From the IMG/VR virus record IMGVR_UViG_3300042865_001090: 64,000 bases of DNA, one strand, 5' to 3'. This document shows, piece by piece, positions 43,132 through 44,336 of the stretch. The position numbers and the translations under genes are program-made. This stretch comes from an uncultured virus (IMG/VR IMGVR_UViG_3300042865_001090). Taxonomy: Duplodnaviria; Heunggongvirae; Uroviricota; Caudoviricetes. The notes beneath the pieces are model-generated. The model saw nothing but the letters and a program-made list of their open reading frames with translations. It did not search any database and had not been told where the DNA came from. The stretch's first letter is position 1. Every line of letters begins with the position of its first letter.

Positions 43132-43482
43132 CTAAACCTGGGCGCGGACATTGGCGTTGAGGGTTCGCAAGGCATCAATACTCGTCCTGAGTGAAAGAAG
43201 TTTTTCTCGCTTTGCCCTAACTAGTGCTTCCGCGATTTCGTAATCCTCTTTCATTTGTTCCATCTTGTAATGAGACCATTGCTCTCTGTCGGTGATTGTT
43301 CTGTGCCCCTTGCCAGCAGCTCCTAGATATTCTTTTGCCCATTCCGCCTTGTACCTGGCGTCTTTTTTTGCAGCGTCCACGGCGAGTATTTCAAAGTTTT
43401 CAGTTTCTTTTTCGAGCAGGTCGAGCAGTCTCATCATTTCTCGTTCAATGTCCACCTGGCTGATTGGTTGACTTCTATTCAT
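43132..43482 (-). CDS. helical hypothetical protein
   Basis: Coiled-coil pattern, DALRTLNANVR C-terminus. Confidence 0.6.
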   Translation of the reverse strand: MNRSQPISQVDIEREMMRLLDLLEKETENFEILAVDAAKKDARYKAEWAKEYLGAAGKGHRTITDREQWSHYKMEQMKEDYEIAEALVRAKREKLLSLRTSIDALRTLNANVRAQV

Positions 43483-44005
43483 TTTCTATCCCTTCGAGTG
43501 GGGACCAGTCTATCTTCTCTAGCGCCGAGAGAGAAATGTTTGACCACTTATATTTTGCATTTCCAATTTTTGCCAAAACCATTTCTTCAAGAACCCACGC
43601 ATCGCACATATCATCAGCATGCCCCCCTTTCCAAACTATTCCCGTAATAGCTGATATTGCAGATATGACTTCTGACTTGCCAGCGTTCCCTTTGCCTGTG
43701 GCAAATTTTGCTCGACAAGTAGGAGGCACGATTATGTATGGAATATCAAGATTTAGCAAGGCAACCCTGACAACACCGCCAAGCTCCCCAATTGAGTGAG
43801 CCTGAGAATTTCTTGATGCAAAAGAATAACCCTCTATGGCTACCAATTGTATTTTGTTGGAAACCGCAATATTGCCAATTTCGCTGGCTATTTTCCTCAA
43901 TCTTTCAGCTCCAGATAAATCAAAAGAAAGATAACCAGCTTCTCCAGCATGGCAATACCCAGTGGATGTAAGTGATAGGTCGAGACCTAGGATGTTCATG
44001 GGCAC
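43475..44005 (-). CDS. ruvC: RuvC-like Holliday junction resolvase
   Basis: ILGLDLSLTSTG, VAIEG, ELGGVVR, KFATGKGNAGK, DDMCDA catalytic pattern. Confidence 0.85.
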   Translation of the reverse strand: MPMNILGLDLSLTSTGYCHAGEAGYLSFDLSGAERLRKIASEIGNIAVSNKIQLVAIEGYSFASRNSQAHSIGELGGVVRVALLNLDIPYIIVPPTCRAKFATGKGNAGKSEVISAISAITGIVWKGGHADDMCDAWVLEEMVLAKIGNAKYKWSNISLSALEKIDWSPLEGIENE

Positions 44006-44022
44006 GCAAAACTCTACCCCAC

Positions 44023-44055
44023 AAACAAAGACCCGCCGGGTGTAATCCCGACGGG
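44023..44055 (-). terminator. intrinsic terminator of RNA B
   Basis: CCCGUCGGG-AUUACA-CCCGGCGGG followed by UCUUUGUUU. Confidence 0.7.
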
Positions 44056-44149
44056 AATTAACACAGACAGACGTCCATGTCTACTTTGCGTAGTTATTCA
44101 CCACTAGACCTTGGACCACCTGCCTTTCTTTTCTCAGAAACGGCTGTAA
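44023..44149 (-). ncRNA. predicted structured small RNA B containing a complement of the 16S rRNA 3' tail
   Basis: TGnTACTCT extended -10 at 44156-44164; AGAAAGGCAGGUGGUCCA (44112-44129); long stem AGGCAGGU(G)GUCCA / UGGACGUCUGUCU with inner GUCUA/UAGAC and GUGGU/ACUAC; own terminator. Confidence 0.6.
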
Positions 44150-44208
44150 GACCTTAGAGTACCATTACAAAATTATTAGCTCAGGTAAAGAGATGTTGGC
44201 GCGCACAT

Positions 44209-44269
44209 AAAAAAAGAGACGCAAGAACCGGGGGCTGCACGTTGCCCTGTGCCCCCGGCCCTCGCGCCT
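44209..44269 (-). terminator. long GC-rich hairpin plus U7 (terminator/scaffold of RNA A)
   Basis: AGGCGCGAGGGCCGGGGGC pairs with GCCCCCGGUUCUUGCGUCU; the G.U pairs work only on the minus strand. Confidence 0.75.
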
Positions 44270-44286
44270 ATAACGGTCCTAAGGAT
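44209..44286 (-). ncRNA. predicted small RNA A with a 5' segment antisense to 23S rRNA helix 69/70
   Basis: TAGAAT -10 at 44291-44296; 5' CCUUAGGACCGUUAUAG (44268-44284); 19-bp stem with 4 G.U pairs (44217-44269); U7 tail. Confidence 0.7.
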
Positions 44287-44336
44287 ATTAATTCTACAAC
44301 TGAAATGTCTTTCGTGTTGTAAACGCAAGTAATGTT

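Follow-up and report, generated by a model that had tools for sequence, protein, structure and literature searches.

The uncultured virus record IMGVR_UViG_3300042865_001090 comprises 160,282 bases, of which the window (the whole stretch of DNA analysed here, 64,000 nucleotides in length) is a part, and encodes a terminase, a capsid protein and two WhiB genes. A methionine aminopeptidase-like M24 peptidase, located outside the window (G000 L129:15832-16668), shows 92-96% identity to freshwater acIV/Ilumatobacteraceae proteins; by this identity it is a recent capture of a host gene and, because of the same resemblance, the phage host likely belongs to the freshwater Ilumatobacteraceae, a group of actinobacteria. 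Also outside the window, the same phage carries a proteasome-subunit-like gene, a B12-type ribonucleotide reductase, a ferredoxin and TauD, as well as five tRNAs (Ile-TAT, Met, Arg-TCT, Asn and Thr-TGT).

On the minus strand of the window, the locus under study comprises, in order, an HNH endonuclease gene, two structured RNAs, so-called RNA A and RNA B, and a RuvC-like resolvase gene (Table 1). The elements of RNA B that the initial annotation had read from the DNA letters, including an extended -10, a structured sequence and a terminator-like hairpin, are all present on this strand, with the correction that the hairpin not only resembles a terminator but also forms part of a conserved three-way domain. 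RuvC relatives with another gene order (L052, L057, L062 and L069) display no HNH gene and neither RNA upstream. Pairing was evaluated against real 16S and 23S rRNA sequences from two Ilumatobacteraceae-type genomes; 16S positions follow the E. coli numbering, extended to 1544, and 23S positions follow the standard numbering, the rrlA index running one higher.

Table 1. Features of the HNH-RuvC locus, listed along the minus strand
Feature	Position	Strand	Remarks
HNH endonuclease gene, 100 aa	44337..44639	-	PF01844; upstream flank; occurs with or without the RNAs
RNA A promoter (TTTACA, 21 nt, TAGAAT)	44291..44323	-	Predicted; layout as in RNA B
RNA A guide	44268..44284	-	Perfectly complementary to 23S C1914-G1930 (loop and 3' strand of helix 69, running on into helix 70)
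RNA A long hairpin and U tract	44208..44269	-	Adjoins the guide
RNA B promoter	44156..44189	-	Predicted; TTTACC 44189-44184, 22-nt spacer, extended -10 TGG-TACTCT 44164-44156
RNA B, ~127-nt transcript	44023..44149	-	Predicted; 5' end inferred from -10 spacing
Arm 1	44136..44146	-	Complement of 16S helix 45 3' strand, ~1518-1528; also 5' cage strand for arm 2
Arm 2, purine block	44112..44129	-	17 pairs with free 16S tail 1528-1544
AGG and UC(U/G)AG	44104..44111	-	AGG where 15/56 variants carry AUG/GUG/UUG, then near-invariant UC(U/G)AG
Hairpin P2	44090..44104	-	Two-sided changes in 3/4 pairs; 91.7% of cells paired
3' domain	44025..44089	-	P3, P4 and P5
Closing helix P3	44089-44084 with 44030-44025	-	93.4% paired; all changes confined to one side
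Variable hairpin P4	44081-44060	-	
Hairpin P5	44055-44032	-	Doubles as intrinsic terminator; 99.3% paired; 5/10 pairs change on both sides
Own -10 of RuvC-like gene	44016-44011	-	Separate promoter from RNA B
RuvC-like resolvase gene	44005-43475 (with -10: 43475..44016)	-	PF02075; downstream flank

RNA A and the composition of the HNH-RuvC slot

RNA A opens with a guide, comprising its first 17 bases, which gives the best blastn match of the phage genome to host-type rRNA (17/17) and the best duplex among 21366 windows of that genome (-35.1 kcal/mol versus -28.5 kcal/mol for the next). The guide adjoins the long hairpin of RNA A in all RuvC-anchored copies; across 69 distinct viral guide contexts, a hairpin of -15 kcal/mol or better follows in 65, and four contexts lie in long ORFs. 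Two relatives of RNA A pair with the 23S rRNA over 28 nt. RNA A relatives in another gene context (L159, L217, L223 and L149) display unbroken pairing of 20-28 nt, up to C1941, and in the L009/L043 types the register slides towards 1938.

Among 76 distinct HNH-RuvC slots, counted by fixed thresholds that miss a few weak RNA A copies, 20 contain both RNAs, 16 only RNA A, 11 only RNA B and 29 neither, and the reverse-strand controls give 0/76. These slot counts reject an obligate A+B pair (Fisher p 0.019, although the slots are kin), and both orders, A-B and B-A, occur in relatives. RNA B is dispensable, since three RNA-A-bearing records at least 90% complete, among 28 chosen records, contain no RNA B match. 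RNA A and RNA B are accessory cassettes, not an obligate pair. A function of the RNAs as guides for the HNH or RuvC protein is rejected as well, because both genes occur without the RNAs.

Complementarity of RNA B to the 16S rRNA tail and helix 45

Against the real 16S end of the two host-type genomes, arm 2 forms 7 + 10 = 17 pairs, including one G.U and interrupted by one bulged C, reproducing the pairing originally described for this element. The duplex reaches -26.7 kcal/mol and ranks first of 21366 phage-genome windows on both strands (runner-up, -20.4; mean, -6.8; sd, 2.7 kcal/mol); in 400 kb of host-type DNA, three loci attain -21 kcal/mol and none attains -25 kcal/mol. A single match to the 16S tail is rare without being proof, and the proof lies in its conservation among homologs.

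Scans with the RuvC protein (the best 80 of 583 viral and the best 80 of 490 metagenome stretches), complemented by three sequence patterns, provided 56 distinct RNA B variants. In addition, a profile built from the 3' domain alone, leaving out the core, and applied to 280 loci that had been selected through RuvC or RNA A returned 121 matches with 46 distinct upstream regions, comprising 41 full and five partial or wrong-strand ones. All 41 full matches pair with the 16S tail at -21 to -27 kcal/mol, a count that stands for perhaps a dozen lineages and not for 41 events, the profile rows being kin and first chosen by the core pattern. With the two G's opposite 1538-39 as the anchor of the count, a G faces C1543, C1539, C1538, C1535 and C1533 in 41/41 homologs, and the A:G counts are 34:6 (with one C) opposite U1544, 38:3 opposite U1542, 37:4 opposite U1541 and 33:8 opposite U1540. 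The pairing is most invariant opposite 16S 1530-1535, falls to half at G1529 and ends at 1544, a U standing opposite A1545 in 1/41. At the SD centre the match is always imperfect: nine spacer forms occur in the 41-homolog set, the position of the bulge slides among homologs, and divergent members contain G.U pairs, with L269 and L294 pairing with the 16S tail through G.U and without a bulge. Five divergent RNA B-like genes were observed (L269, L143, L294, L295 and L555), four of which carry an unbroken G.U-rich complement of the 16S tail.

At the level of sequence, selection evidently keeps arm 2 (15-17 nt) complementary to the whole free 16S tail, and the 16S 3'-end complement to which the initial annotation drew attention is a real feature. 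That RNA B pairs with the 16S tail in vivo is highly probable, and in this phage and many relatives it would be a folded RNA built to pair with the 3'-terminal 15 to 27 bases of host 16S rRNA. No true RNA B copy was found in 151 sampled host-family genomes, the only match (1/151) covering the terminator part, and blastn against INPHARED phages gave two short chance matches only.

Helix 45 was first pointed to by an 8-mer scan. For 25 representative 5' segments, 16S 1518-1532 is the best partner among 4572 rRNA windows (mean -14.2, against -12.1 for the runner-up), and arm 1 of this copy reaches -15.1 kcal/mol against the 3' strand of helix 45. Taking 48 distinct arms one by one, the helix-45 window is among the top 1% in 26 and among the top 5% in 40; helix 45 is a better partner than the RNA's own arm 2 in 44/48 arms, and better than its own best 3' partner in 31/48. 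None of 1000 target shuffles reaches the observed arm 1 mean, and the same holds for the 13 lineages without the pseudoknot described below. The mean is -15.7 in 34 start-less arms versus -10.9 in 14 start-bearing ones. Compared to folded helix 45 with its tail (-18.7), arm 1 duplexes amount to -9 to -17, a nearest-neighbour energy insufficient to open the helix; part of the arm 1 sequence is explained by internal pairing, either with the cage or, in about half of the aligned rows, with the P5 loop; and the helix-45 arm is absent in three of four divergent members tested, those three being of the unbroken G.U-rich type. Since the two arms stand in permuted order, joint binding would need a turn of the rRNA at 1529-1532. 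On balance, a real role of the helix-45 arm is slightly favoured.

Fold, promoter and start-codon variation of RNA B

The structural alignment comprises 33 less redundant rows from a set of 49, a set that excludes L349, a pattern match without the fold, and 13 sequences without a detected 3' end. P2 and P5 covary in these rows, and P3 closes the three-way 3' domain round the terminator hairpin by means of a conserved GCAAA:UUUGC/U pairing. The fold score of the alignment is reached by 0/500 shuffles, a control that kinship can inflate, and the fold of this copy beats 200/200 shuffles (z -3.7). A search of Rfam 15 revealed no known unrelated family, with 0 matches in the window (best local E 0.62) and nothing over the RNA in six homolog loci; a SNORA52 match at E 9.6 is noise. 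ARAGORN finds no tRNA or tmRNA in the window, and a tmRNA-like resume frame is rejected because the NNYAK frame varies across homologs. Box C/D or H/ACA motifs are absent, as judged by eye, among the invariant alignment columns, and a 3' domain aimed at other rRNA targets is likewise rejected, the scan returning only terminator-like noise.

It had been proposed that arm 2 is sequestered in either of two competing stems and behaves as a switch. Both cages can fold in this copy (5', -12.6 kcal/mol; 3', -14.3 kcal/mol), and the 16S-complement block is predicted to be at least half paired in 52/54 homologs, the 5' part being the main partner in 35 and variable 3' parts in the others; as the partner varies among homologs, the block is caged, but a conserved two-state switch is not supported. 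Net binding after opening is favourable in 33/33 rows (mean -11.5, weakest -6.4). A pseudoknot between the 5' end and the P5 loop, whose cognate pairs beat permuted ones (0/10000), is rejected as a general feature, with at least 7 bp in 16/33 rows and none in this copy. An RNAalifold alternative that pairs the SD-centre GGC with the 3' end is possible and is broken in 2/33 rows. A two-state riboswitch or attenuator for the RuvC gene is rejected, since the cage partner varies and the position before RuvC is not fixed, copies arranged as B-A having RNA A instead of RuvC next to RNA B; RuvC, moreover, carries a -10 of its own.

Concerning the promoter, TGnTAnnnT occurs in 34 of 48 distinct RNA B upstream regions, 31 of which also have TTYAC at a distance of 21-23 nt upstream, and the remaining 14, from the start-codon clade, contain a GGTACC element instead, which is perhaps an alternative-sigma promoter. 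The GGTACC element and imperfect RNA A copies accompany the start-codon clade in L008, L011, L034, L037, L040, L041, L048, L068, L078, L105, L116, L246, L264 and L267. A shared promoter class marking a temporal regulon is rejected, the motif being no commoner in the genome than in shuffles. From its sequence conservation, RNA B is predicted to be a free-standing transcript, with promoter and terminator motifs maintained across the family.

No AUG had been noticed at SD spacing, and this copy indeed carries AGG there, with a five-codon frame; the GUG-VNNYAK frame begins 13 nt after the SD core. The micropeptide MVNNYAK suggested for the latter is not borne out by the homologs, its GUG being GUA or GCG in 15/33 aligned rows, and comparison of the 56 variants discloses no ORF, and hence no conserved ordinary peptide, common to the whole RNA B family. 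A start codon at SD spacing 5-7, directly before UC(U/G)AG, is found in 15/56 variants (AUG in 12, GUG in two and UUG in one), opening frames of 14-19 codons, exactly 14 in 11 of them, in two different downstream frames. The other 41/56 are start-less, with AGG (21), GAA, GAG, AUA, AAA and others at this place and frames of 5-51 codons without a common stop; the commonest replacement codons (AGG, AAG, AUA and GAG) are one change from AUG or GUG. In an unrooted RuvC tree of 44/56 variants, the other 12 having no RuvC in reach, 12 start-bearing rows fall into one clade of 18 together with six start-less ones. The peptide of the AUG lineage shows no purifying signal (crude ratio 1.1 on 15 steps).

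The occurrence of start codons at spacing 5-7 in 15/56 variants shows the register to be that of an mRNA on the 30S subunit. The UC(U/G)AG element (44104-44108, minus strand) possibly presents Ser-Ser codons to the A site, or serves as one more short arm, the third, pairing with 16S 1527-1531. The family forms a gradient, with an rreB-like minigene mRNA, represented by the start-codon clade, at one end and start-less forms, in which the helix-45 arm is stronger, at the other; loss of the start codon would have turned such a minigene into the start-less clamp, a direction that is unrooted.

Candidate functions and comparison with known systems

The reading we prefer, held tentatively and a little short of even confidence, is that RNA B is a 30S-binding RNA that forms a dead-end complex, the trap being its purpose. 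RNA B would act in trans on the host 30S subunit, to which it would bind as measured for rreB: the 16S tail would open the partly caged RNA and form an over-long SD-like helix, and the next bases of RNA B would enter the mRNA channel where the start codon would sit. In this copy, AGG followed by a hairpin would not permit normal initiation, and the 30S subunit would be held in a dead-end complex. The 5' arm may add pairing to helix 45 when this helix is loosened or not yet formed, and RNA A would act in a similar way on helix 69 of the free 50S subunit, the net effect being that part of the host ribosomal subunits is parked or throttled during infection. By crude start calls, using 41/136 phage ORFs and 78/358 host ORFs with unambiguous starts, SD sites at -7 kcal/mol or better precede 18/41 phage versus 10/78 host starts; a selective host shut-off sparing leaderless phage mRNAs is rejected, because the phage uses SD more than the host. 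This heavy SD use, together with the absence of a growth effect of rreB, argues against a blanket shut-off and makes partial parking, or action at one stage, likelier.

A different purpose, and an unlikely one, is counter-defence, in which RNA B would shield the 16S tail from host nucleases that cut the anti-SD, and RNA A would do likewise near helix 69-70. The invariant core, opposite 1530-1535, lies over the bond (C/ACCU) that mycobacterial RelE1 and MazF-mt11 cut at a distance of 11 nt from the 16S terminus (PMC12620021, PMC12274833). MazF-family genes are present in 125/151 host-family genomes, the only count that the unpublished genome G094 enters, but among the listed genomes not exceeding 2.1 Mb, a size class to which the closest MetAP matches belong, a match is found in just 6/21, with six further non-matching genomes outside that list. 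The phage needs SD-competent ribosomes, yet a stable cover would block SD pairing too; the patchy presence of the RNAs suits an arms race. The majority of RNA A guides end at 1930 and do not extend to the loop of helix 70 (2/11 examined reach 1941), and the start-codon register is left unexplained.

Quite improbably, RNA B is an rreB-like minigene whose long SD loads ribosomes slowly on a frame of ~14 codons, this copy using a near-cognate start (AGG or a later GUG) or decaying. The 41 start-less variants with their disparate frames (five codons here), and a peptide without purifying signal even in the AUG lineage, are difficult to accommodate, in spite of the 15/56 variants that do have a start codon at spacing 5-7, most of which (11) open a frame of exactly 14 codons, and of the commonest replacement codons being one change from AUG or GUG; extended SDs also direct non-canonical starts in S. 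aureus (PMC13009471). Since start-less copies keep the fold, the promoter and the pairing and display a stronger helix-45 arm, they are not decaying.

Even less credible is a blocker or guide of ribosome assembly, in which the RNAs would pair with immature or free-subunit rRNA before helices 45 and 69 become locked, and would either stop maturation or mark the rRNA for cutting, modification or nucleotide recycling. Arm 1 needs an open helix 45 and RNA A an open helix 69, the latter favourable by -19 kcal/mol on naked RNA, and the guide adjoining the hairpin in RNA A could give a long quasi-continuous helix. In addition, both rRNA regions mature late, and 16S 1530-1539 is the Era binding site. 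However, arm 2 stops at the mature end, neither the alignment nor Rfam yields a box C/D or H/ACA motif or a snoRNA match of note, and no partner protein is tied to the RNAs, the flanking genes lacking them in 29/76 loci. Finally, an incidental match, in which a purine-rich strand of some structured RNA or cis-leader with another function merely resembles an SD, as ordinary strong SDs before genes in unrelated phages resemble this 17-mer and G-rich strands pair easily, is very improbable and already largely refuted by the wobble-only variation and sliding bulge, the second arm on an adjacent rRNA stretch, the match of neighbouring RNA A to up to 28 nt of 23S, the reverse-strand controls, and the A-B or B-A order with a separate promoter for the next gene.

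The central inter-subunit bridges are the place where helix 45 and helix 69 come together. Opinion is evenly balanced on whether freshwater actinobacteria phages encode natural antisense RNAs against both subunits, targeting the 16S tail and helix 45 on one and 23S helix 69 on the other; these phages probably act on host ribosomes through RNA. If true, these RNAs would constitute a novel type of viral effector, one that pairs with rRNA and thereby controls, parks or shields the ribosomes of the host. To our knowledge, phage control of translation comprises proteins, tRNAs or mRNA-targeting sRNAs, and searches of the main texts of mostly open-access articles disclosed none in which a phage RNA pairs with host rRNA. 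Published catalogues of candidate structured phage RNAs (Fremin et al. 2022) may contain these RNAs without annotation. Box C/D and H/ACA guide RNAs carry 10-20-nt antisense elements to rRNA, sometimes in two pieces; unlike them, RNA B displays no box motifs, has no core proteins identified and operates in a bacterial host.

For phiKZ, two ncRNAs without a strong SD are described (PMC8545117). Archaeal ncRNAs of the Val-tRNA-fragment type reside on the small subunit and compete with mRNA (PMC4615380, PMC5711459, PMC11009984); unlike RNA B, they are not phage-encoded and not known for long Watson-Crick pairing with rRNA. RelE1 (PMC12620021) and MazF-mt11 (PMC12274833) address the same 16S stretch, cutting a bond under the invariant core; unlike these host protein nucleases, RNA B pairs and is without a catalytic signature. 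Both rRNA targets are also sites of synthetic antisense inhibitors, the 16S site being in addition where actinobacterial toxins cut. In a review, the mRNA-binding end of 16S is a functional PNA target and a helix-69 PNA is listed (PMC12916000), and synthetic PNA oligomers share the target sites of RNA B and RNA A (PMC12916000, PMC12828698); unlike them, RNA A and RNA B are natural, folded and virus-encoded, with wobble pairs.

The closest likeness is to rreB/rreR of Alphaproteobacteria. These are free-standing transcripts of ~130-170 nt in which a segment of 16-17 nt, complementary to all of the free 16S tail, is partly concealed by a stem; rreB, with a 17-nt complement, co-sediments with 30S (Hahn et al. 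2016, PMC5711450) and, as in the RNA B start-codon clade, has a start codon directly after the complement and a 14-codon frame (14 aa). Its overexpression did not slow B. japonicum, which the authors explain by ribosome excess (PMC5711450). RNA B differs in being phage-encoded with an actinobacterial host. Compared to the perfect match described for rreB, every RNA B variant seen has a bulge or G.U at the SD centre, 41/56 variants, this copy included, lack a start codon at that place, and RNA B adds a helix-45 arm, a three-way 3' domain and a neighbour RNA matching 23S helix 69. RNA B would thus be of the extended-SD, 30S-binding type like rreB, this copy not qualifying as an rre-type member for want of a start codon or conserved sORF. 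With the start codon present or absent and the helix-45 arm weak or strong, the family forms a natural series that lets one ask what an over-long SD helix does to the ribosome, the question left by rreB.
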